From a virus, in IMG/VR virus record IMGVR_UViG_3300009084_000003, positions 325 through 64,324 of that record: DNA of 64,000 bases. One strand, written 5' to 3'. The notes below the pieces were generated by a model that saw nothing but the letters and a program-made list of their open reading frames with translations, did no database searches and was not told the DNA's origin. Shown piece by piece: positions 34,893-51,027 of this stretch; positions within the stretch are counted from its first letter, which is position 1; every line of letters starts with the position of its first letter. A program made the position numbers and the translations under genes.

Positions 34893-35615
34893 ATGCCCGA
34901 ACTAGCGTGCCAATCGTTCGCCACCGTCGTCGACGTCCTCGAAGCGCCGTGCGGCTGCGCGTACACCGACAGCGACCACGGTGCGCTGATTCAAGAGCTG
35001 ATCGACGAAGCCAGCGACTTCTTGTACGTCGCCTCTGGGGGTCGAGTGCATGGGCGGTGTACGCGCACCGTCTATCCGATTTCCAGCGGCTACCCCTGTG
35101 GCCCGGTCGGGTGGATGGGGTTCGGGGGCAACAGCAGTGAAATGCTGCTCAATCCCATCCCGCTGCCTGGACCATCTGCGTCGGTGGCGCAGGTGAAGAT
35201 CAACGGTGTCGCTCTCAACGCGAGCGAGTACGGCATCTACAACGGGAGCTACCTGTTCCGGCGCGTGGGTTCATGGCCGACGTCGAACGACATCACCAAG
35301 GCCAACACCGAAGAAGGCACGTTCACCGTCACCCACTCGTTCGGCAACGCGCCTTCTCGCATCACGGTGATGGCCACTGTCGAGCTGGTCTGCCAGATGA
35401 TGAAAGACCCCACCACCTTGTCGCGACTGCGAGGCGTGACCTCAGCGAACGTCCAAGGGGTCAGCGTGTCGCTCGATGCTGCCGAGGAAGCAGAGGCGCT
35501 TGGCATCCCGGCCGTGGGCCGGTTCCTTGATCGCTTCGCCCCTCGCGGGATGGGGGTGCTGGCAGTGTGGACGCCAGAGCTGGACAACAACTGGTCGCTG
35601 GTGACGGTGTCGTGA
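34893..35615 (+). CDS. head-to-tail adaptor
   Basis: ASDFLYVASG..VHGRC.RTVYP, VTSANVQGVS; leaderless -10 TAGCCT. Confidence 0.75.
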   Translation: MPELACQSFATVVDVLEAPCGCAYTDSDHGALIQELIDEASDFLYVASGGRVHGRCTRTVYPISSGYPCGPVGWMGFGGNSSEMLLNPIPLPGPSASVAQVKINGVALNASEYGIYNGSYLFRRVGSWPTSNDITKANTEEGTFTVTHSFGNAPSRITVMATVELVCQMMKDPTTLSRLRGVTSANVQGVSVSLDAAEEAEALGIPAVGRFLDRFAPRGMGVLAVWTPELDNNWSLVTVS

Positions 35616-35959
35616 GTGGCCCCCCGCAGCCCAAAGGCCCACCCAGAGGCCCGAAGCAGCGTCTGTCGATGCGACGCACCGCCATGAAGCGCAACCCGTC
35701 GAAGTCCAAGGCTGAGTTCCACCCGTCGGTCCGCGCCGCTGTCGAGCGGCGCTCCCTGGGATGGTGTGAGGCTGACGCCCCAGGCTGCACCCGCAGAGCC
35801 ACCGTGATGCACCACCGTCGCCGTCGGTCGCAGGGCGGGGCAGCAGACGCCGAGAATGCCTTGCACGTCTGCAACCCCTGCCACCTATTCATTCATGCAA
35901 ACGTGGAGCTGTCAGTCTCCCGTGGGTGGCTTCTAACCTCAGGGCCGCGTCAACCATAG
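35612..35959 (+). CDS. HNH endonuclease
   Basis: CEADAPGC...HHRRRRSQGG...NALHVCNPCH. Confidence 0.85.
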   Translation: MSGPPQPKGPPRGPKQRLSMRRTAMKRNPSKSKAEFHPSVRAAVERRSLGWCEADAPGCTRRATVMHHRRRRSQGGAADAENALHVCNPCHLFIHANVELSVSRGWLLTSGPRQP

Positions 35960-36017: not shown

Positions 36018-36740
36018 ATGGCTACCAACCTTGCCGGTGGAGTGTGTGTAGGTGAGTTGCAAGCGTGCATCTTGCGCGCCGCTCGCCTCGACTCCGACTG
36101 CACCCCCACGGGTGGCGTCAATGGCGGTCTTGTGACCGCTGGCCTCGTGACGCTCACCGCCGACCCCGACGTGGAGGAAGGGACGATCTACGAGCAGAAG
36201 AATGCCTGTGGCGACATCTTGTTCACCTACGAGAAGGACGACAAGATCAAGCGTTACAACCTGTCGGGCGAGCTGGGCTTCTCTGACTTTGAGATGATGG
36301 CTCTCCTCTTCGGCGGCTCGGTCATTCTGGGCAAGGCAGGCGGCGCGTTCGCTGGCAAGGTCATCGGCTACGCCGACCCGCTCTACACCGCAGCGCCACG
36401 CAACGGCGTCTACCTGGAGGTCATCACGACCGCCATCACCGAAGGCGCTGGCTCGTGTGTCGTCGCTGGCTCGGAGGCACCGTTCGCCATCGGCCACATC
36501 TTCGGCAAGGTCAAGCTGCGCCCCGGCTCGAAGGCGTTTGCTGATGACGTGAAGCGCATCGCCTTCAGCGGCAAGGGCACGAACAACCCCAACATCTTCA
36601 ACGGCCCGTGGAATGACTACCCCGGTGCCGGGTACGCCCCGAATAGCGCGAGCATCTCGGTCGGCTACACCGAGGCTCAGTTCAACGCCATCGCGGCGAC
36701 GGTCGACTGCGGGTACCAAGACCTCCCCACCGGGAGCTAG
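36018..36740 (+). CDS. major tail (tube) protein
   Basis: SD AGGAGG; LQACILRAARLDSDC...KNACG; followed by terminator. Confidence 0.85.
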   Translation: MATNLAGGVCVGELQACILRAARLDSDCTPTGGVNGGLVTAGLVTLTADPDVEEGTIYEQKNACGDILFTYEKDDKIKRYNLSGELGFSDFEMMALLFGGSVILGKAGGAFAGKVIGYADPLYTAAPRNGVYLEVITTAITEGAGSCVVAGSEAPFAIGHIFGKVKLRPGSKAFADDVKRIAFSGKGTNNPNIFNGPWNDYPGAGYAPNSASISVGYTEAQFNAIAATVDCGYQDLPTGS

Positions 36741-37998: not shown

Positions 37999-38011
37999 GA
38001 CGTAGTATGTC
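37999..38011 (+). promoter_or_regulatory. GACGTAGTATGTC promoter/operator copy
   Basis: 4 nt before ATG 38016. Confidence 0.75.
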
Positions 38012-38015
38012 GGGC

Positions 38016-38384
38016 ATGGCATCACCGCAGAAGATTCTGGACCTCGACTCACAGCTCGGGTTCGACCTCACTCCCGCCCCCACCAAGACCGTGCGCCTCC
38101 TCGGGGCGGAGTGGACGATCGTGTGTGACATCAACTCGTTCGCCGTTTCCGACATTATGTCTGGCGATTCCGGCGGCATCGCTCGGTTCATCCGCGGGAT
38201 CATCGTCCCAGAGGAATCGGTCGCGTTCGCTGAGGCGCTCTCGAAAGTGCCGAACCTTGATGGTGAGAAGTTGGGCAAGTTGCTCGAAGCGCTGATCGAC
38301 GCTGCGAGCACGCCTGTTCCGCCAGCGCCCGTCCGGCGCACTCCCATCAGCCCAAAGCCTCCGCGCAAGACCGCGACGCGCTGA
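38016..38384 (+). CDS. tail assembly chaperone paralog (no downstream T segment)
   Basis: directly before tape measure; homologous to 49150..49524. Confidence 0.7.
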   Translation: MASPQKILDLDSQLGFDLTPAPTKTVRLLGAEWTIVCDINSFAVSDIMSGDSGGIARFIRGIIVPEESVAFAEALSKVPNLDGEKLGKLLEALIDAASTPVPPAPVRRTPISPKPPRKTATR

Positions 38385-38436: not shown

Positions 38437-41400
38437 GTGGCTGGGTTCACCGCAAATTCTGACGGCACTGTTTTCATCGGCGCTCAGCTCGACGCGGACT
38501 CAGTCGACGCCATCGCGAAGGTTATTGAGGCGGCCTGCTCTCGTGGCGTCACGCAGGGGTTCGCCGAATTCAAGAAGATTTTCAACAGTTCGGCTACCGC
38601 CGATGGAGTGAAGAAGATTCAAGACGCGGTGAACGCTGCTGGCAAGAGCGCCGTACAGGCTGGCAATGGGGCCAAGGTCTTCTCGAAGAATCTGAATGCC
38701 GCATCGCAGGAGGCGTACAATCTTGGCGACGCGCTTCAGCGGATCGGGCAGCTTGAAAAGGCGATCGCCGCCGCCCAATACCGCGCCCGCTCCACGGAGC
38801 GTCAGGGGGCCATCACTGATCGGGAGCGCTTCTCGCGTGACGCCCAGCTCCGCATCGAGACCCTGAAGGGCGAGAACTCCCGCGCCGCGTCGGGTGCCCA
38901 GGGTGCCGCCCAGCAGCAGGTGGTTGCAGCTCGGTACGCGGGCAAGCAGCGGGTACTGATCGTGCAGGAAGTCTTGCGCACTATTGGGCGGTTGGAGAAG
39001 GCGCTCGGGGCGACCATAGCTGGGATCGCCCGCACCGCGACCAGCGCGATCTCAAAGTCGTTCAGCGGGCTCACCTCAACCCTGAGCAAGTTTGGCAGCT
39101 CTCTGCGCCGTACCGACTCAGGGTTCAATCAGACGCTGCCTCGCGAGTTACGCACGCGCGAGACGTTGATCCGGTCGTCATTCTCGCGCCAGGAGAAGGA
39201 ACTCCGGTCGTCAACTATCCGTCAGCAGCGCATCATCCAGCAGGCGCGAGCTGCCTCGTCGACGGGTGTGCTCGGAGCGGTGAGCGGGCGGGGCGCTGGG
39301 GGCGGAATAGGTCTAGGAGGTCTCGCCGGTGGCGTTGGCATTGGGGCGTTGCTGACCTCTGGCTTCAGGCGCTTCTCTGATCTGGAGCGCATCAACAAGC
39401 AGTTCCTTGCCCTCACTGGCAACATCGACGACACCAACACCCTGCTCGCCCAGGTGAAGCAGTTTGCCAAAGAGACGCCCTTCGATCTCGTTGGTGTCGC
39501 TGATCTCGCCAAGGGCTTCCTCGCCATCAAGACCCCGGTCGATCAGGTTCTTCCTCGCGTCCAGGCCATCGCCGACGCCGTCGCCTTGACCGGCGGCGGG
39601 GTCGACTCACTCAACCGCATCCAGCGAGCGCTTGGCCAGATCGTCTCGACCGGCAGGTTGCAAGGCGACGAACTCAACCAGCTCGCCGAGAACCTGCCGG
39701 GCCTGAACATTCGTCAGATTCTCGCCGACCAGGTCACAGGCGGCGACGTCCAGGCGCTCGTGGCCTTGCAGGAGGCCGGGGAGCTGAGCGCTGACGCCGT
39801 CGTCAACGGGCTCATCACCGGCCTTGCCAGCGACCCCCGCTTGGCGGGGGCGAGCGCCGATCTGGCCAAGACCCTGGGCGGTCGAGTCGCCAACCTCAAG
39901 GAATCGTTCGACGATTTCGGCGCGGCCATCATCGGCACCATCGCAGGGCCACTGAAGGTCGCCGTCTTGGGCGCTCAGACCGTCTTGCAGAGTTTGGCTG
40001 ACTTTGTCAAGGGCGAGGCGCTCAGTGGTCCTCTCCTCATTCTCCGCGAGGCCCTCACCGGGGCGGCTGTCGCGCTCACGGCGGTCGTTGTGGCGAAGGG
40101 TGCGGTGGAGGTCTTCAAGCTGCTGGCCGTTTCCGCCCAGCTCCTCCTCTCGCCGATGGGCCTTCTGCTTGTCGGCGTGGCGACCGTGGGTGCAGCGTTC
40201 AACGTCCTGCGCACCCGCTCTGCCGACTTCCGCGAGGCCATCTCCCTTCTGGGGCGCTACCTCGTCACACAGGGCAGCCGCATCTGGGATGGCATCATCA
40301 CCGCCGTCCATACCGTCATCGACGCGTTCGCGCGGACCAAGGAGGCGGTTGGCGGCACAGCCGACCGCATAGAGCGAGAGGTCAAGCCTGCCTCTCGGTT
40401 CTTCCGCGACCTCGGCGACACCATCAAGCGTGCCCTGTTCACGGCCACCTCTTTCATCGTTGAGAAGGTGATCCCAGCCCTTGCCGAGTTCGCGATCTTC
40501 GTAGGCCGCAACTTCGTCCCAGCCGTCTCTGTCGCCGTTGGCGTGGTGTTGGGGCTCGTTGACCGGGTTGTCGATATTGCCAAAGGCATTTACACCTACG
40601 TTCGTCCGGGGCTCCAGACTGCCATCGACGGTTTCCACGAACTAGCGAACGCCATCGGTGCGGCATTCAGTGGTGATTTCTCGGGCCTTGAGAAGCAGAA
40701 GACGAAGCTACTCATCGCCCTCACCGCCGGGGTGACGGGCCTGGCGATCGGCGGCCCCATACTCGGGGCTGTGGCCGCCGCGGCGGTGCTGGTTGGCCCC
40801 GCCATCGGCAAGGCGCTCCAGCCGATCGGGCGGCGGGTTGCGGAGTTCTTCACTGAGCTGTTCTCCGGCCCGAACATCAAGCGGTACATCTCCGGTGTTC
40901 TCGACTTCGTGGAAGCGGTTGGCCGCACTATCGGCACAATCGTGTCCAGCCCGTTGTTCTTGAAGGCCGTCGCCGCCATCGCTGCCGCTGCCGTGGTGAT
41001 CGGCTTCCGCTTCGTCAAGGGCTTCATTGAGGGTGTCGCATCCAACCTCCCTTCCTTCGGCGACGTCCTTCAGGCTGGGCTGGGGCTCATCTTCGACAAC
41101 CTCGGGGTGGTCCTTGGGATCGCCCTCGCTGCGGCTATCTTCGGTCCACGCCTGCTGGGGCTGTTCCGTACTGGCGGGGCTACTGCGGGGACGTCGTTCG
41201 CATCGGGGCTGAAGGCGTCATTCGGCCGCGGTGGCGATTTCCTCAGCAGCCTGTTCGGTGGGGCTGGGGCCGCCGACCGACGGGCGATCGGCAACCTCTT
41301 CAGGGGGGCGGAGAGGGAGGCGCGAGGGTTGGCCAACCAACTCCGCGTTCTAGGGGAACCTCGCCAAGTATTCGGCAGCCCCACCTCCATGAGGGAGGCG

Positions 41401-44400
41401 ACCGATCGTATCCGCGAGCTGAGCACCGGGCTTACCGCCGCTCAGATAAACGGGCTTCGGCTGCGAGACACGTTGCAGCAGGGTGGCCTTGCCATCAGGG
41501 GCGTCTTCGGCGGGCTAGTCCAGGCCAGCAAGGGTCTCGGCCCCGCTTTGGCGGCACCAGTGAAGGGGTACATCGCAGCGCTCAATGCGACCAACGCCTA
41601 CATCGGCCCCGGCACGTCGGGGGGCAAGGCATTCGTGAAGGCTTTCGCCGAATCCTTCCGTGCTGGCGGCGGTGCGATCAAGGACGGGTTTCGGTCGGCG
41701 TTGTCGGCGGTTGAGCAGTTCTCTATTTCGCAGGGGAAGTCCATCGGCCGCACGTTGGTCAACGGGCTGCGGACAGGCGCTGAAGCGGGGCTGGCGGCAC
41801 TAGGTGGATTCATGGCTGGCCGCGCCGAGGGCGCGGCTGGCGGAAGTGGGCTACTAAGCGCCGCTACCGCCGGGCTGACGGCGGGCCTGATTACCCAGAA
41901 CCCAGTGATTGGCGTCGCCGCCGCGGGAGCCTCCCTGCTAGGCACCCAGCTCGGCAAGGCTGAACGGGCCGCGAAACTGTTCAAGGAGCGGTTGGCTGAA
42001 ATTGGGTCCGTCATTCGTGGCAAGTTGGAAGCGGCGCTCAAAGCGGGCAAAGATGCAGTACTTGACCTGCGCGACGCGTTCAGTCTGGAAGGGGAGGCTG
42101 GACTTACCGACGAGATCACTAAGCTGCTGAAGCCTGAGACGCTGAAGACCCTTCTGGACGCTGGGGTCAACAGTCGAGAGTTGTTCGCCGCTTTTCGTGA
42201 AGGCCAGCCAGCCGTGGAGCGTCTGCTCAGCTCAATCGGCGGGAGTAAGGGCTCTGGAGAGTTCGGCAAACTCACCGACATCCAAAAGGCTGCCTTTGAT
42301 GTCGGTACCGTGTTCGTGGGCGTGGCCAAGGAGATCGAGTCTGTCAACGTCAAGGCGCAGTTCGGTGCTGACGGGCCGATAAAGCGCTGGTCTGCTGCCG
42401 CCTTCCTCGCCCTCGGCGGGCCAGGCACCACCGACACCTTGGGCCGGATGAAAGATGCCATAGAGACTCTCGACCCGGCCTTTCAGAGGCATATCGACGA
42501 CACTAAGAGGTTGGCCGACGGGTACGACGGCGTCGCCGCTGCGGTCAAGGGAGCGCAAGACAACATCAACGCCGCGTTCGGCCCCAAGGGCGGGTCGCTT
42601 GGTTTGCAGATCGACACGGCAGTCGTTGGGGCGAAGAGTCAGGGCGCTCAACTCGCAGAAGCACTACGGTCGGGGGCTGGCAGCTCTGAGTTCAACCTGG
42701 CGCTGAACGACATCAGTAGCAGGATTGGGACAATTGTTTCGGAGGGCGTCGGGAGCGGGGCGATCCTAACCCCCGAGGCGGCGGCATTCGCTACCGACTC
42801 GTACAAGAGCGCGCTGTTGGCGGCAGTGAAAGACAACCCAGAAGCCACCGCCGCGATCCGCGCGTTGTTCGACAGCATCCCCGCGACAATCAAGCCCGAG
42901 TTGGACAAGGTCAAGCTGAAGAGGGACGCCCAGTCCGCCCTGGAAGGCGTCACCCTGTTCGGCGTTGGCAAGGGGAAGTTCAATCGGCCGATTGGCGATA
43001 TTGAGGCCCCCAAGGCCCCCAAGGTCGACATCCCTTCCTCCTCAAAGACGCAGGGTGAATGGTGGAGGTTTGGTTCCGACATCGCCACGGGGGCGGCGAG
43101 GGGCGTCACCGCCAACACCTACAAGCCGGTGACGGCAGCCGTGATTATGGCGTCGAAAATGGCCATCGCGGCGCGCAAACAGTCGGGCATCGCGTCGCCG
43201 TCGAAGGTGTTCAGGCAGATCGGCGTGTTCATGGGCGAGGGTCTCGCCGTCGGCCTCCAAAGCACGGCCGCCTTGGTGTCGGGCGCTGCCACTCGTCTCG
43301 TCGACCGCGTCGTCGCTGCGGCTCGCTCCGCTGGTTCTGGTGCGGCTGACGCGTTGAAGGGTGTCGGGTCGGACATCTTCGCTGGGATGGTTGGGTCGGG
43401 CGCTGAACTCAACACCGGCAACTCGTTGCTGCAAGCCCGCGGCGCGCTCACTACAGCATTCAGCAGCCTGCGCGACTCACTGTCGGGTGAGGGGGCGACG
43501 ACAACGCTGGACATCAACGACGCCCTCGGCGTGGCGAACATCCAACAGTTGACCGGCGCGTTCGACGCGATCGCTGAGTTCGGCCAGGTGATGCTTAGCC
43601 AGGGCGTCGACGCGTCAACGGTCGCCATCCAGCTCCAACAGCAGGTGGACGTACTCACCCAGCTTGCTGTGTCGATGGGTTTCGATCAGGCCGGTGTCGC
43701 GGGCCTGGCTGATTCGCTCGGCCTTTCGGGCGCTGCGCTCGGGCAGTTCGTCTCCACTGCCGCCGACGCCGCAGCGCAGATCAGGCAGATCGCCGCCGAC
43801 CTGGCAGCCACCGACTTGTATCAGAAGTCGTTCGGCTCTCAGGCGACCGGCCCCAACGGCAACGCAGGCGCTCTTGCTTCAGCGCAGGCCGGGGTGACGA
43901 CCGCCGTGCAGTCGGTGTTGTCCAACTTCGACACGCAGATCGGCCAAGTGTTCACACTCGGCGCGTCTGATTACTCGAAGCTGAACGCTGCCGATAAGGC
44001 ACTCTTCGATGAGATCAAGGCTGGCAAGGCGCTCTCAACTGACACGACGACGGTGCTCGGTTCGGCGAACCTGGCGTCGCTGACCGGCGCGTTCGACGCG
44101 ATCGCGAACCTCGGCCAAGTGATGATCAGCCAGGGTTCCTCTGCCGCTGACGTGGCGGCCGAACTGAAGAAGCAGACAGCGGCAGCTACAGCGAAGGCCA
44201 CTGCCCTCGGCTTCAGCGTCAGCACTGTTGCTGGTGTCGCTGCTGGGCTCGGACTGTCGAACGTGGCAATCGACGGCTACGTCACTGGTGCCGCTGCCGC
44301 TGCCGCTGCTGCCGCCGCTCCGGCCCCCGGCGCTGCCGCCGCCACGGCGGCCGTGTACGCACTGCCCCCAGCCGCCATTCCCGTGTACCGTCCGCCTGTC

Positions 44401-44631
44401 GCGCCTGCCGCCGCCGCTCCGTCCGGCCCGTTCACCCCGTCCACCGCCGCTGAAGACGCTGCGTCCGCGGCAGCGAACGCAGCCTTCGTCGCCCAGTTGA
44501 TCAACTCTGGGATGCTCACGACGAGCGGGGGCTCTGGCTTGTCGGGCGGCCCTGACCCGCAGGCGTTCATCAACGCTGTCGGCCCAGGGTTGGCTAAGGT
44601 GATTCAGCAAGCGATACGGGCAGGTGGGTGA
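38437..44631 (+). CDS. tape measure protein (2064 aa)
   Basis: size, Ala/Gly-rich, FAKETPFDL...GRLQGDELNQLAE tape-measure domain. Confidence 0.95.
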   Translation: MAGFTANSDGTVFIGAQLDADSVDAIAKVIEAACSRGVTQGFAEFKKIFNSSATADGVKKIQDAVNAAGKSAVQAGNGAKVFSKNLNAASQEAYNLGDALQRIGQLEKAIAAAQYRARSTERQGAITDRERFSRDAQLRIETLKGENSRAASGAQGAAQQQVVAARYAGKQRVLIVQEVLRTIGRLEKALGATIAGIARTATSAISKSFSGLTSTLSKFGSSLRRTDSGFNQTLPRELRTRETLIRSSFSRQEKELRSSTIRQQRIIQQARAASSTGVLGAVSGRGAGGGIGLGGLAGGVGIGALLTSGFRRFSDLERINKQFLALTGNIDDTNTLLAQVKQFAKETPFDLVGVADLAKGFLAIKTPVDQVLPRVQAIADAVALTGGGVDSLNRIQRALGQIVSTGRLQGDELNQLAENLPGLNIRQILADQVTGGDVQALVALQEAGELSADAVVNGLITGLASDPRLAGASADLAKTLGGRVANLKESFDDFGAAIIGTIAGPLKVAVLGAQTVLQSLADFVKGEALSGPLLILREALTGAAVALTAVVVAKGAVEVFKLLAVSAQLLLSPMGLLLVGVATVGAAFNVLRTRSADFREAISLLGRYLVTQGSRIWDGIITAVHTVIDAFARTKEAVGGTADRIEREVKPASRFFRDLGDTIKRALFTATSFIVEKVIPALAEFAIFVGRNFVPAVSVAVGVVLGLVDRVVDIAKGIYTYVRPGLQTAIDGFHELANAIGAAFSGDFSGLEKQKTKLLIALTAGVTGLAIGGPILGAVAAAAVLVGPAIGKALQPIGRRVAEFFTELFSGPNIKRYISGVLDFVEAVGRTIGTIVSSPLFLKAVAAIAAAAVVIGFRFVKGFIEGVASNLPSFGDVLQAGLGLIFDNLGVVLGIALAAAIFGPRLLGLFRTGGATAGTSFASGLKASFGRGGDFLSSLFGGAGAADRRAIGNLFRGAEREARGLANQLRVLGEPRQVFGSPTSMREATDRIRELSTGLTAAQINGLRLRDTLQQGGLAIRGVFGGLVQASKGLGPALAAPVKGYIAALNATNAYIGPGTSGGKAFVKAFAESFRAGGGAIKDGFRSALSAVEQFSISQGKSIGRTLVNGLRTGAEAGLAALGGFMAGRAEGAAGGSGLLSAATAGLTAGLITQNPVIGVAAAGASLLGTQLGKAERAAKLFKERLAEIGSVIRGKLEAALKAGKDAVLDLRDAFSLEGEAGLTDEITKLLKPETLKTLLDAGVNSRELFAAFREGQPAVERLLSSIGGSKGSGEFGKLTDIQKAAFDVGTVFVGVAKEIESVNVKAQFGADGPIKRWSAAAFLALGGPGTTDTLGRMKDAIETLDPAFQRHIDDTKRLADGYDGVAAAVKGAQDNINAAFGPKGGSLGLQIDTAVVGAKSQGAQLAEALRSGAGSSEFNLALNDISSRIGTIVSEGVGSGAILTPEAAAFATDSYKSALLAAVKDNPEATAAIRALFDSIPATIKPELDKVKLKRDAQSALEGVTLFGVGKGKFNRPIGDIEAPKAPKVDIPSSSKTQGEWWRFGSDIATGAARGVTANTYKPVTAAVIMASKMAIAARKQSGIASPSKVFRQIGVFMGEGLAVGLQSTAALVSGAATRLVDRVVAAARSAGSGAADALKGVGSDIFAGMVGSGAELNTGNSLLQARGALTTAFSSLRDSLSGEGATTTLDINDALGVANIQQLTGAFDAIAEFGQVMLSQGVDASTVAIQLQQQVDVLTQLAVSMGFDQAGVAGLADSLGLSGAALGQFVSTAADAAAQIRQIAADLAATDLYQKSFGSQATGPNGNAGALASAQAGVTTAVQSVLSNFDTQIGQVFTLGASDYSKLNAADKALFDEIKAGKALSTDTTTVLGSANLASLTGAFDAIANLGQVMISQGSSAADVAAELKKQTAAATAKATALGFSVSTVAGVAAGLGLSNVAIDGYVTGAAAAAAAAAAPAPGAAAATAAVYALPPAAIPVYRPPVAPAAAAPSGPFTPSTAAEDAASAAANAAFVAQLINSGMLTTSGGSGLSGGPDPQAFINAVGPGLAKVIQQAIRAGG

Positions 44632-46102: not shown

Positions 46103-46302
46103 CCGTCCCTTTGTCGAAGATTGGACTGACTTGGGGGTCGGTGACGCAGGTGACCCCGTTGCAGGTTCGCATCAACGGCGACACAGGCGACACCCCGATC
46201 GCCCTCATGGATTCGGGGATGACGTTCTCGGTTTCCGACAAGGTCGGCTTGGTGTTGCTCGGCTCGCAGTGGGCTGTCTTCATGAAGGTTGTAGCAACAT
46301 GA
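46099..46302 (+). CDS. small minor tail protein
   Basis: GSVTQVTPLQVRINGD; ATGA overlap. Confidence 0.6.
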   Translation: MTVPLSKIGLTWGSVTQVTPLQVRINGDTGDTPIALMDSGMTFSVSDKVGLVLLGSQWAVFMKVVAT

Positions 46303-46315
46303 GGGAGGCGACCTA

Positions 46316-48353: not shown

Positions 48354-48366
48354 GACATAATATGTC
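48354..48366 (+). promoter_or_regulatory. GACATAATATGTC promoter/operator copy
   Basis: immediately after the tail gene stop, upstream of 48410. Confidence 0.7.
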
Positions 48367-48409
48367 TGGGTGTAGCATCCCCTCCATCAACCTTCACAAA
48401 GGAGCACAC

Positions 48410-48784
48410 ATGAAACGCATTATTGCCCTGATTGTCGCAGCCATTGCGGCACTCACCCTCATTCCCGCCCCAGTCAGCGCCGGGTCGAATGTGGCCGAAA
48501 TCAACAACGTCGCCACATCGTGCGCCGCCCCCGACGGCACCTACACCGTCACCTGGCGGGCAGACATCTTCGCCCCGTCGAGGGTGCAGCGTGGCGTGAC
48601 GGCTTGGTCACTGACTGGCACGGCCGAAGTCTCGGTGGCATCGTCCATCTACGTCGTGACGACCCACAGTCGGATCACGCCCGGCTTCCCGGTCCGTGAG
48701 CCCCGCATCGCTATCCAGGCGCAGATCGGTTCTGCTCGTCCGATCTTGACCGACGACGCGAACATCCCGGCCTTCTGCCCCTGA
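48410..48784 (+). CDS. secreted protein with signal peptide
   Basis: SD AAAGGAG; MKRIIALIVAAIAALTLIPAPVSA. Confidence 0.75.
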   Translation: MKRIIALIVAAIAALTLIPAPVSAGSNVAEINNVATSCAAPDGTYTVTWRADIFAPSRVQRGVTAWSLTGTAEVSVASSIYVVTTHSRITPGFPVREPRIAIQAQIGSARPILTDDANIPAFCP

Positions 48785-48790
48785 GACCTG

Positions 48791-49233
48791 CTAGGTAGTT
48801 GGGTGGTGCAAGCCCTGACGGCCTCCAACGCCAGGGCTTGCACCATCGTCGCGTTTGATGGGAGGGCGGGGCTTCCCGTTGGCGAGGAGCGCCTTCAGCT
48901 TTGACATTTCCTCAGTGGATGCCGTGGCTGTCGAGGGGGCAGTCGAGCCCCCAGCCTTGCGCTTGGGGGCTGTGTCGTCGTAGCGGTCCTTCACCTGCTT
49001 GATGGTCTCTGCCGAGTAGCCGAAGGCGACGTTCATCAAGTCGCGATACTCGAACGGGTTCATCATCGCGCCCGACACGCGCACCTTCAGAGCCCACACG
49101 CAGTCCAGGTACTCAGACAATGAGAGGTCGCGCAGGCGCAACCCAGAACCTAGGAGGAGTGTGCCGCTGATTTCTGCCCTGATGTCCGCTTGCTCACCGA
49201 CCGCGATGAGGTGGAGGGCAGTACGGTAGGGCG
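48791..49233 (-). CDS. tail assembly chaperone T segment reached by a predicted -1 frameshift
   Basis: -1 frame open from CGCCCTAC (49226-49233): PYRTALHLIAVGEQ...LRDLSLSEYLDCVW. Confidence 0.65.
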
Positions 49234-49524
49234 TTCCGACGCAACCTCCACAAGTGCGTTGACGAGTTTGCCCAGCCTGTCGGCGTCCATGTTCGGCTGT
49301 GCCGACAGGGCGCTTGCGAAGTCATCGCGTTGCGATGCCACTACGACGTTGCTGAGGAACCTGGCGACAGCGCCGTTGTCGCCAGCACCAATCGACGACA
49401 ACGTGAAGAAGTTGAGACCACACACCACGTCCCACTCGCGGCCGAATAGGGTGACAGGCTTGGTGAGGATGGGCTCTTCCTCGCCGAGAAGATCGTCAAG
49501 GTTGGTTCGTTTGGGGTTTGCCAT
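49150..49524 (-). CDS. tail assembly chaperone G
   Basis: paralog of 38016..38384; ends ERPT...SS, typical of frameshifting chaperones. Confidence 0.75.
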   Translation of the reverse strand: MANPKRTNLDDLLGEEEPILTKPVTLFGREWDVVCGLNFFTLSSIGAGDNGAVARFLSNVVVASQRDDFASALSAQPNMDADRLGKLVNALVEVASERPTVLPSTSSRSVSKRTSGQKSAAHSS

Positions 49525-49528
49525 GCCA

Positions 49529-49541
49529 GACATAGTAGGTC
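49529..49541 (-). promoter_or_regulatory. GACCTACTATGTC promoter/operator copy
   Basis: 4 nt before ATG 49524. Confidence 0.7.
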
Positions 49542-49604
49542 GGGGGGGCGTGCGATGCAAGGATGCGCGTGCTCGCCGCGCGCGGCGCAGCTATGGTTGC
49601 GGAT

Positions 49605-50387
49605 ATGACCGTCACTTTCTACGACTGGCAGGCCGGGCTCCAACCTGGGAAGCCGTACGACTACCTGTCGCCCAATCTGGTGGCCGTTCGTAATGAGCTG
49701 GCCGTGCGTTTCGGGGGAACGCCGCTCGGCGACTTTGTTGTCCGAGCGATCCGGGCCGGTTTCACATGGTCGAGCCATTCGTTCGGGTCTGCGATCAACT
49801 GGCGCATCGAAGACGCCAAGGCCCGCCGGGCGGCGATGGACTGGCTGATTGAGCATCATGTTCTGCTCGGCATCCAGGTCATCCACGACTATGTCGGCTG
49901 CCGCATCTGGCACGCCAACCGCTACCCCGGCAAGGACGCCCAGACGTGGTGGAGGCCGCAGCCCAAGAACCCGAGGAACGGGATGGGGCAGGCGTGGGCG
50001 AAGTACCTGCATATCGAAACCGACCGCAGCAACTGGTTGAACAGCACCCCGGTTTACATGCGCGGTCAGGTCGCCCCCGTCACCCCCCCGACGACCGTAT
50101 TGTTCGATCCGGCGAAAGGCATCTGGGGTTTGTACCCACTGGACAGGAACAAGAACACCATCCGCGAAGTGACGAGCGTCGCAGCCTCCGACAACGACCG
50201 GGCGTTGTGCAGGTACTTGCAGGGGGTGCTGCGCCTCAAGGCATCACAGGACGTCAAGGTCGACGGCGACTTCGGCCCGTCGACGGGCGATGCCGTTGAG
50301 CGTTTCCAGCGCTACTTGGGGTTGAAGCCCGACCGTGTCGTCGGCCCGGTCACCTGGGGCTGGATCGACCGGATGACGAGGGGCTGA
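49605..50387 (+). CDS. endolysin: M15-like peptidase domain plus peptidoglycan-binding domain
   Basis: SSHSFGSAIN, YLHIET; VDGDFGPST...FQ...LKPDRVVGPVTW; -10 TATGGT 7 nt before ATG. Confidence 0.8.
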   Translation: MTVTFYDWQAGLQPGKPYDYLSPNLVAVRNELAVRFGGTPLGDFVVRAIRAGFTWSSHSFGSAINWRIEDAKARRAAMDWLIEHHVLLGIQVIHDYVGCRIWHANRYPGKDAQTWWRPQPKNPRNGMGQAWAKYLHIETDRSNWLNSTPVYMRGQVAPVTPPTTVLFDPAKGIWGLYPLDRNKNTIREVTSVAASDNDRALCRYLQGVLRLKASQDVKVDGDFGPSTGDAVERFQRYLGLKPDRVVGPVTWGWIDRMTRG

Positions 50388-50388
50388 C

Positions 50389-51027
50389 ATGCCTGGGTCC
50401 ATCACCGCCTGCGCCGTCAGGGCGACGAGGCTCGACTCCAACGGGGAGGCTGCCTCGGGGACCAACGCCTACATCGTCTCCGATGGGCTCATCCGTCTCG
50501 TCGTCTCGCCTCGCTACACCGAAGCACCGAGCACCATCCTGTTGGATATCTGGGGTGATGTTGTTGTGAACGCCCCGGAGAACCCAGAGATGCTCGGCAT
50601 CGACCTGGCGATTTCGTTGTCGGGCGTGGACCCGGCCCTCGTAGCCTTTCTCGCCGAGGGCTGCTCCCGCATCGACCGCATCGTCCCGGTTGGCCTGCGT
50701 CTGCGCTCCGGCCGCGACCTCAACGCCCGGTATGCGCTGGAGACGTGGACCATCGCCGTCGACAGTGACGGTGCCTGCATAAACGACAAGTGGCACTACT
50801 GGGTGTTCTCGCGAGTGCGCGCCGGGGCCTTGACGGCATGGTCGTTCGAGAACGCCCCGCTGGAGTTCGGCCTTTCCGGCTCAGCCCAGGCAGGTCTCGC
50901 CTCTTGGAGTCAAGGCCCTTACACTCCATTCCCGAGTGACGAAGTGATAACTGCGGGGGACTTCGCTGTTCATGCCCTCACTTCTGTGCCTCCCCCGGTT
51001 GCTACTTTGGGCTTGGCGTCGCTGTGA
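50389..51027 (+). CDS. second tail-tube-like protein (paralog of the major tail protein)
   Basis: ACAVRATRLDSNG vs ACILRAARLDSDC; shared GP(Y/W) C-terminal motif. Confidence 0.7.
   Translation: MPGSITACAVRATRLDSNGEAASGTNAYIVSDGLIRLVVSPRYTEAPSTILLDIWGDVVVNAPENPEMLGIDLAISLSGVDPALVAFLAEGCSRIDRIVPVGLRLRSGRDLNARYALETWTIAVDSDGACINDKWHYWVFSRVRAGALTAWSFENAPLEFGLSGSAQAGLASWSQGPYTPFPSDEVITAGDFAVHALTSVPPPVATLGLASL

Follow-up and report, generated by a model that had tools for sequence, protein, structure and literature searches.

The uncultured, actinobacterial-type phage described here carries a tail assembly chaperone pair of the G/GT type, G' and T', inverted and away from the tape measure gene, together with a second G that has no T part and occupies the usual slot beside the tape measure. 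This arrangement probably arose by capture, in that a foreign G/GT cassette would have been taken up backwards and used as the source of the long product GT', the native G then losing both its slip site and its T. The original prediction, made from the DNA letters, had recognised the two related copies and had proposed a -1 shift from G' into T', and in these respects it has been borne out and extended. It had also viewed the minus-strand pair as relocated and the tape measure copy as a paralog left behind, and this part we replace by a different history of the two genes.

Two G genes in one phage genome

The window, by which we mean the whole 64,000 nt stretch that was analysed, covers positions 325-64324 of a 67,272-bp IMG/VR record that is rated complete (62.7% G+C, siphovirus-type). 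Portal, major head protein, a glycosyltransferase block, the head-tail adaptor and an HNH gene come early, followed by the major tail (tube) protein MTP, the conserved unknowns X and Y, the resident G and the tape measure gene (Table 1). Beyond these lie the tail proteins p129, p361 and p678, then p140, two minus-strand frames and a lysin, and after the lysin a second tube-fold protein (MTP'), membrane proteins, a minor tail protein, WhiB and the terminase genes.

Table 1. Features of the two chaperone loci and their surroundings, in window coordinates.
Feature	Position	Strand	Remarks
Palindromic motif GACNTAVTATGTC, all sites	1205, 18966, 22683, 29717, 37999 (+), 48354 (+), 49529 (-), 55883		
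HNH endonuclease gene	35567-35959	+	just upstream of the tube protein
MTP	36018-36740		major tail (tube) protein; followed by X and Y
Motif copy GACGTAGTATGTC	37999..38011	+	before resident G
Resident G	38007..38384	+	probably native, clade B; 125 aa
Tape measure protein	38437..44631	+	2064 aa; start GTG; 52 nt after resident G
Short conserved coding stretch	46103-46315	+	between p361 and p678
p140	48362..48784	+	small predicted secreted protein; own motif promoter at 48354; left flank of the putative insertion site
T'	48791..49228	-	145 codons + stop, -1 frame; would be fused to G' residues 1-102, giving a GT' of ~247 aa
Hairpin	48804..48845		17-18 bp; between convergent p140 and T', inside the last T' codons
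G'	49150..49533	-	predicted tail assembly chaperone, putative clade-A xenolog; stop 49152-49150
Proposed -1 shift site CGC-CCT-AC	49226..49233	-	
Internal Shine-Dalgarno-like GGAGG	49245..49249	-	14 nt upstream of the CCT codon
Copy of the genome-wide promoter/operator motif, GACCTACTATGTC	49529..49541	-	-10 TACTAT (49537-49532); overlaps first ATG of G'
-35-like hexamer TTGCAT	49555..49560	-	17 nt upstream of -10
Lysin	49563..50387	+	peptidoglycan-binding domain; right flank of the putative insertion site
MTP'	50389-51027	+	tube fold, phrog_792 (E 2.8e-24); directly after lysin; 28% identical to MTP

G' (49533-49153, minus) and the resident G (38007-38381, plus) are paralogs, as had been noticed, and share 47% of their residues over 101 aa (E 1e-30). 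From G', the -1 frame enters the T segment and runs to a stop at 48793-48791; that this frame is open was correctly seen, but it opens further upstream than had been stated, at 49321, which is 31 codons before the Tyr codon at 49228. The ORF list began G' at TTG 49560, a start that we replaced by ATG 49533 or ATG 49524, giving a protein of 127 or 124 aa; if the mRNA is leaderless the second ATG is the more likely of the two. At the tape measure, the stop of G ends at 38384 and only a 52-nt gap separates it from GTG 38437, so the absence of a T there is confirmed, and with no T-like extension in either alternative frame this copy cannot shift. Fusion of this G to the tape measure by frameshifting was also considered and rejected, as there are stops in both alternative frames. 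The tape measure protein is homologous to its counterparts in relatives from about residue 7-17 on, and therefore has no T fused to it; indeed, a T-profile search found only one T in the whole 67-kb record.

The inverted arrangement is real and no assembly artefact, because it recurs outside the window. The independent metagenome contig L013, which matches the window at ~99% identity across 4.3 kb, has the order p678-p140-T'/G'(inverted)-lysin-MTP'; L022, another contig (99% identical), likewise shows a T-less G beside the tape measure, and several further contigs are recorded as encoding exactly these G' and T' proteins. L013 and the window have the same G' protein. The T' of L013 (L013:2712-3116) has a 30-nt in-frame deletion (window-equivalent 49045-49074), with loss of ten residues, among them the most conserved T motif, and this may represent a defective allele or relaxed selection on T'.

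Assignment of G' and T' to the G/GT chaperones

In four related lineages, i.e. the L003 type (L014-L018 and L023), L004/L019, L020/L024 and L021, the order on one strand is MTP-X-Y-G-T-tape measure, and the G and T genes there are orthologs of G' and T'. G' is 74% identical to the G of L003-type phages, a gene immediately followed by T and then the tape measure; T' is 60-70% identical to the T of L003 and L004 (~70% for the L003 type) and 40% identical to that of L020 and L021. This survey of relatives, which had been suggested as a check, found the orthologs in their usual order in all four lineages, each keeping CGC-CCT-AC. The window pair (49533-48791, minus) does not itself adjoin the tape measure gene (38437-44631, plus), and it is because it is orthologous to the tape measure-adjacent pairs of L003, L004, L014-L021, L023 and L024 that we regard it, in agreement with the original prediction, as a genuine G/GT-type pair.

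The AlphaFold model of G' (pLDDT 82.9) finds as its best viral (BFVD) matches annotated actinophage tail assembly chaperones (E 5e-4, Foldseek probability ~1, TM 0.4-0.5), and against the PDB it matches 3fgx with Z 5.9 and, weakly, the HK97 chaperone 2ob9 with Z 4.3. The T' model is poor (pLDDT 57.9), making a fold search on T' meaningless. The G' family comprises 168 cluster representatives at E <= 0.001. It has no match in Pfam, and in PHROGs one of 81 family members matches phrog_10551; Pfam and PHROGs searches with G', T', G, X and Y gave nothing useful, T' matching neither collection. A PDB sequence search with the family profile returned chance-level matches only, and the Phage GenBank collection held no DNA or protein match to the region.

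Conservation of the -1 frame and a candidate slip site

The -1 relation of T to G is the same in all four lineages. Conservation of the peptide encoded in the -1 frame begins at 'PY' and continues past the G stop; RAEISGTLLLGSGLRL (16 residues) is identical in three lineages, and the 29 -1-frame codons that precede TTG 49141 are conserved at the protein level. The T frame contains no ATG, GTG or TTG until codon 43 (L004) or codon 55 (L021) of the conserved segment, and in these lineages the segment is therefore only reachable by ribosomes coming from G. That ribosomes enter T out of the G frame is well supported by the conserved -1 peptide and the start-less T frames; most likely they would do so by a -1 shift in or beside CGC-CCT-ACC, as had been proposed. 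Upstream of CGC-CCT, the differences between the window and the L003 type comprise seven silent and seven non-silent changes in the zero frame, and one silent and 11 non-silent changes in the -1 frame. In the overlap, codon-wise synonymous and non-synonymous counts are mixed and do not clearly favour the -1 frame, pointing to it in the window-L003 and window-L004 comparisons and not in the L020 pairs.

The sequence CGCCCTAC is present at 49233-49226, exactly where it had been placed, and is invariant in all lineages with DNA (four). In the zero frame the P and T of the encoded 'RPT' are nearly invariant in the 81-member family, R is the majority residue, and a conserved Ser/Arg-rich tail follows, as expected of a dual-coded stretch. 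The shift must take place within limits set upstream by a T-frame stop (17 codons before the site in L004) and downstream by the conserved -1 peptide. Between that stop and the stop of G there is no XXXYYYZ heptamer in the zero frame of any lineage, and CGC-CCT-AC is the only element that is invariant; many annotated actinophage chaperone shifts are likewise without a heptamer (PMC10885494). The best candidate is a single-tRNA slip, in which tRNA-Pro would move from CCT (49230-49228) to CCC (49231-49229) with TAC as the next codon, and a slip at CCT gives the junction E-R-P-Y-R of the original prediction. CCT makes up 14% of the Pro codons in this genome. Single-tRNA slips on sites of the C-CCU type are less efficient in known cases. 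The internal GGAGG, found in three of the four lineages and as GAGG in the fourth, also encodes a conserved Glu and could possibly act as a stimulator of the shift. As an RNA stimulator, a consensus hairpin of the relatives 8 nt after the slip codon was rejected, showing no covariation, a stability no greater than that of shuffles (z values of -0.3 to -1.7) and an altered form in the window.

A shared promoter-like motif

The window holds eight sites of the palindromic motif GACNTAVTATGTC (15 strand matches), where 0.16 would be expected; none of 100 shuffles reached the observed number. The sites often overlap an ATG and contain a -10-like hexamer, and a second ATG lies 7-8 nt downstream of this hexamer, which fits leaderless mRNAs. 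One site precedes each chaperone gene (37999 on the plus strand, 49529 on the minus strand), so that the shared motif noted earlier is present and over-represented. Relatives carry one-mismatch versions before their G genes, and upstream of G in L003 and L004 the arrangement is TTGCGT-17 nt-TAACAT and TTGCGT-17 nt-TAATAT. The motif is probably a late promoter or operator of the phage, and it is plausible that both copies are co-regulated with the late genes; they may also, as the original prediction inferred, divide the labour between them. A related copy of the motif also lies before the p140 homolog of L028, a contig considered below.

Decay of the resident G and origin of the two copies

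The resident G keeps all family-invariant columns, D14, L17, G18, G33, W36, N43, F45 and F61 among them, but in this protein and its 98% twin 'ER' is deleted and the tail has diverged, though it is homologous up to the stop. In relatives P0156-P0163, 60-72% identical to the resident G, ERPT and the conserved tail are present throughout. The window and L022 differ in this gene by only two changes, both non-synonymous and both in the tail. Judged by its sequence, the resident G is a gene whose core is intact, whose slip site and conserved tail have decayed and whose T part has been deleted.

In a tree of the family G' groups with the L003 G (support 97) in a clade of seven (support 95), with the resident G placed elsewhere. 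Among tube proteins, those nearest to that of this phage are 91% and 87% identical (with others in the same 90% cluster), compared with 72% for the L003 type. Clade-B G proteins, to which the resident G belongs, and these closest tube proteins are both reported from contigs of 23,028, 34,483, 39,394 and 15,785 nt, and the clade-B relatives thus appear to be accompanied by a tube protein that shares 87-91% of its residues with that of this phage. On this evidence the resident G would be the native gene and G'/T' the xenolog, because its clade-B relatives appear to go with the closest tube proteins. With the two G genes in different clades, the minus-strand pair is better described as a captured foreign cassette than as a relocated one, and the tape measure copy, far from having been left behind, as native. 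IMG/VR scans with G', MTP' and the clade-B G alignment yielded no new relatives.

The putative insertion site and the boundaries of the cassette

An empty site is seen in L028, a 10.7-kb contig with p678 (61%), p140 (45%), lysin (66%), MTP' (64%), WhiB and the terminase genes, in which fewer than 100 nt, containing a 12-bp hairpin and no chaperone genes, separate p140 from the lysin. L028 is in the same Ilumatobacteraceae MAG as an L003-type G-T-tape measure contig; the two contigs are not joinable by overlap, and the single T of the MAG is at the tape measure.

On the promoter side, DNA homology to the L003 cassette (77% identity over 588 nt) starts at 49564. In L003 this position corresponds to the first base beyond the stop of the preceding gene, and the conserved -35-like TTGC(A/G)T comes shortly after it. 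At the other end T' has no native stop, and 20 extra C-terminal codons, absent from relatives, read through the hairpin of the recipient. This hairpin (inverted repeat I1) is 94% complementary, with z values of -3.1 and -3.3 and none of 200 shuffles folding as well, and is probably the terminator of p140 and the recipient site. No convincing direct repeats or target duplications flank the cassette. Homology to the lysin region of the relative begins near 'CAGCTATGGT', with 49563-49565 at the cassette junction, and the true lysin start may be ATG 49593 rather than 49563.

Co-acquisition of MTP' with the cassette was considered and rejected, as MTP' is 64% identical and beside the lysin in the empty-site relative; its conservation in the same position marks it as a stable part of this phage group.

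A probable captured cassette and its alternatives

The anatomy, the orthology, the empty site, the cassette boundaries, the decay of the native copy and the motif statistics, all observed or computed, are best explained by capture. The stretch from ~48850 to 49562 would be a self-contained cassette of ~0.7 kb, holding promoter, G' and, in the -1 frame, T', that came from another lineage of the same phage group and was inserted in inverted orientation between the p140 terminator hairpin and the lysin gene. Transcription would start from its own promoter, TTGCAT-17 nt-TACTAT, which includes the late-type motif of the phage, and the mRNA would probably be leaderless from ATG 49524. Most ribosomes would make G' (~125 aa), and a minority would slip back by one base, with tRNA-Pro on CCU in C-CCU-ACC, read UAC and continue to 48794 to give GT' (~247 aa). 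As with lambda gpG/gpGT, one would expect the G part to bind the tape measure and the T part to recruit the tail tube protein. The native gene (38007-38384) would since have lost its slip site and the whole of T, leaving the inverted cassette as the sole source of T, and as T is present in every relative examined, capture most likely preceded this loss. Of this scheme we infer how, and how efficiently, ribosomes slip, in what order the events took place and which partners are bound.

A more elaborate version, which we put forward tentatively and rate as doubtful, is that both G genes are needed, the native G, co-adapted to the native tape measure, serving as the bulk coat and the scarce foreign G'T' joining it via G-G' contacts to supply the only tube-recruiting T domain. 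If such mixed-origin assembly were true, the ratio of short to long form would be set by two promoters and a non-heptamer C-CCU slip, and neither adjacency to the tape measure nor identical G parts would be required.

The history originally envisaged, in which the phage's own G/GT pair moved by inversion or transposition and the tape measure copy is a duplicate without T, we consider unlikely. The identities of G' (74%) and T' (67-71%) to the L003 type lie in the range of most other structural genes of this phage against L003-type phages (57-82%), which would also fit vertical descent of G'/T', and X, Y and G are fast-evolving or mosaic in all relatives. Against this, the two G genes are not sisters, and the tape measure copy has a clade of its own, at 60-72% identity and with ERPT intact, that appears alongside the closest tube proteins (87-91%, against 72% for the L003 type). 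Moreover the resident tail is homologous to clade-B tails right up to the stop, and the gene is therefore a decayed G/T rather than a fresh duplicate.

It is also improbable that the cassette is a passenger, either decaying or put to some other use such as hindering the tails of superinfecting phages, with the resident G acting alone and no GT being made. Both frames are intact, the slip site is kept in the window and L013, G' is identical in the two and the exact proteins recur on several contigs, even though L013 has lost ten residues of T' including its most conserved motif. The cassette is moron-like in having its own promoter and lying antisense to its neighbours, but that promoter motif is common to head and tail operons, which points to late expression together with them. 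Phages with frameshift-free chaperones or without a recognisable chaperone gene have been reported (PMC10885494, citing Vladimirov 2022; PMC12859696), yet here the cassette holds the only T of the genome, and every relative examined keeps a T. Very unlikely, finally, is a separate T' protein made without any frameshift, its translation beginning at TTG 49141 either independently or, once G' has terminated, by re-initiation. A TTG stands 8 nt behind the stop of G' in the window, and likewise in the L003 type, and gene callers list T as an ORF of its own; it is, however, preceded by no Shine-Dalgarno sequence, the 29 codons upstream of it are those conserved in the -1 frame, and L004, L020 and L021 have no start codon there.

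Comparison with known chaperone systems

A G/GT frameshift upstream of the tape measure gene is among the most conserved landmarks of long-tailed phages and is used as such by annotators. Lambda gpG/gpGT and the conserved frameshift were reportedly the subject of work by Levin in 1993 and by Xu, Hendrix and Duda in 2004. Conservation of the G/GT frameshift in long-tailed dsDNA phages, with lambda gpG/gpGT as the example, is also reviewed in PMC5009743. The pair described here resembles that of lambda in having a small chaperone ORF followed by a start-less -1 extension, predicted to give a short and a long product, in the position of its orthologs directly upstream of the tape measure in relatives, and perhaps in the predicted G fold, whose best viral matches are annotated tail assembly chaperones. 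It differs in its place ~4.2 kb past the 3' end of the tape measure gene, on the other strand and under its own promoter, in a slip site that is no XXXYYYZ heptamer, and in the presence of a second, T-less G in the usual slot.

In T4-like phages the short and long chaperone forms come from separate genes and involve no frameshift, according to the work that PMC10885494 and PMC12859696 cite on this point. Here too the two forms may come from different genes, the resident G giving only the short one, but the long form most likely still needs a frameshift in the second gene, and the two G parts are xenologs with 47% identity. The separate-gene chaperones of T4-like phages are reportedly described by Vladimirov, Gautam and Davidson in 2022. 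For cluster DJ Gordonia phages, the authors suggest that the real chaperones may lie at an atypical location (PMC12859696). No frameshifting pair was found in those phages, whereas an atypically placed pair is identified here together with its probable origin and insertion site.

A -1 shift at CGA-AAG in Bacillus subtilis cdd, helped by an upstream Shine-Dalgarno-like sequence, is said to have been described by Mejlhede in 1999. The present site is similar in being a non-heptamer with a GGAGG-like sequence ~14 nt upstream, and is different in that the codon is CCU and not AAG and in that the site is known from sequence alone. In the literature that we searched there was no report of a G/GT cassette that is both inverted and ectopic and is accompanied by a decayed resident copy.

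If the cassette works, the chaperone need not be encoded beside the tape measure, and the G/GT unit would be a portable, self-promoted cassette that can be swapped between phages and can serve from an ectopic antisense position. The resident copy could then lose its frameshift half, creating a natural split into short-form and long-form genes that bears on the G:GT ratio and on the specificity of chaperone for tape measure. As the family keeps the 'RPT' site and not the classic heptamer, it also gives those who study recoding or build frameshift predictors a candidate non-canonical -1 site, and the cassette provides a concrete example for cases, like cluster DJ, in which the chaperone is missing at the expected place.

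Other features of the genome

The HNH endonuclease gene is situated at the margin of the X-Y-G block, which diverges fast. Genes for nucleases are reportedly linked to the boundaries of genetic exchange in phages, to go by the title of a bioRxiv paper of 2023. When the tape measure gene is compared with that of the 99%-identical L022, blastn-level similarity is lost over 39295-40080, 41212-41745 and 41963-43011, and a 217-nt island (41746-41962) is 95% identical, with flanks at 98-99%; the similarity-free stretches point to a tape measure that is mosaic or hypervariable even among very close variants. The clade-A G cluster is seen on hundreds of contigs. L003-type contigs and proteins are binned or annotated in MAGs of the Ilumatobacteraceae (Acidimicrobiia), and the binning of L023 and L028, itself weak evidence, hints at this family as the host group. 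The short conserved coding stretch between p361 and p678, for which no gene is listed at the 100-aa cut-off, is also present at the end of MAG contig C80.
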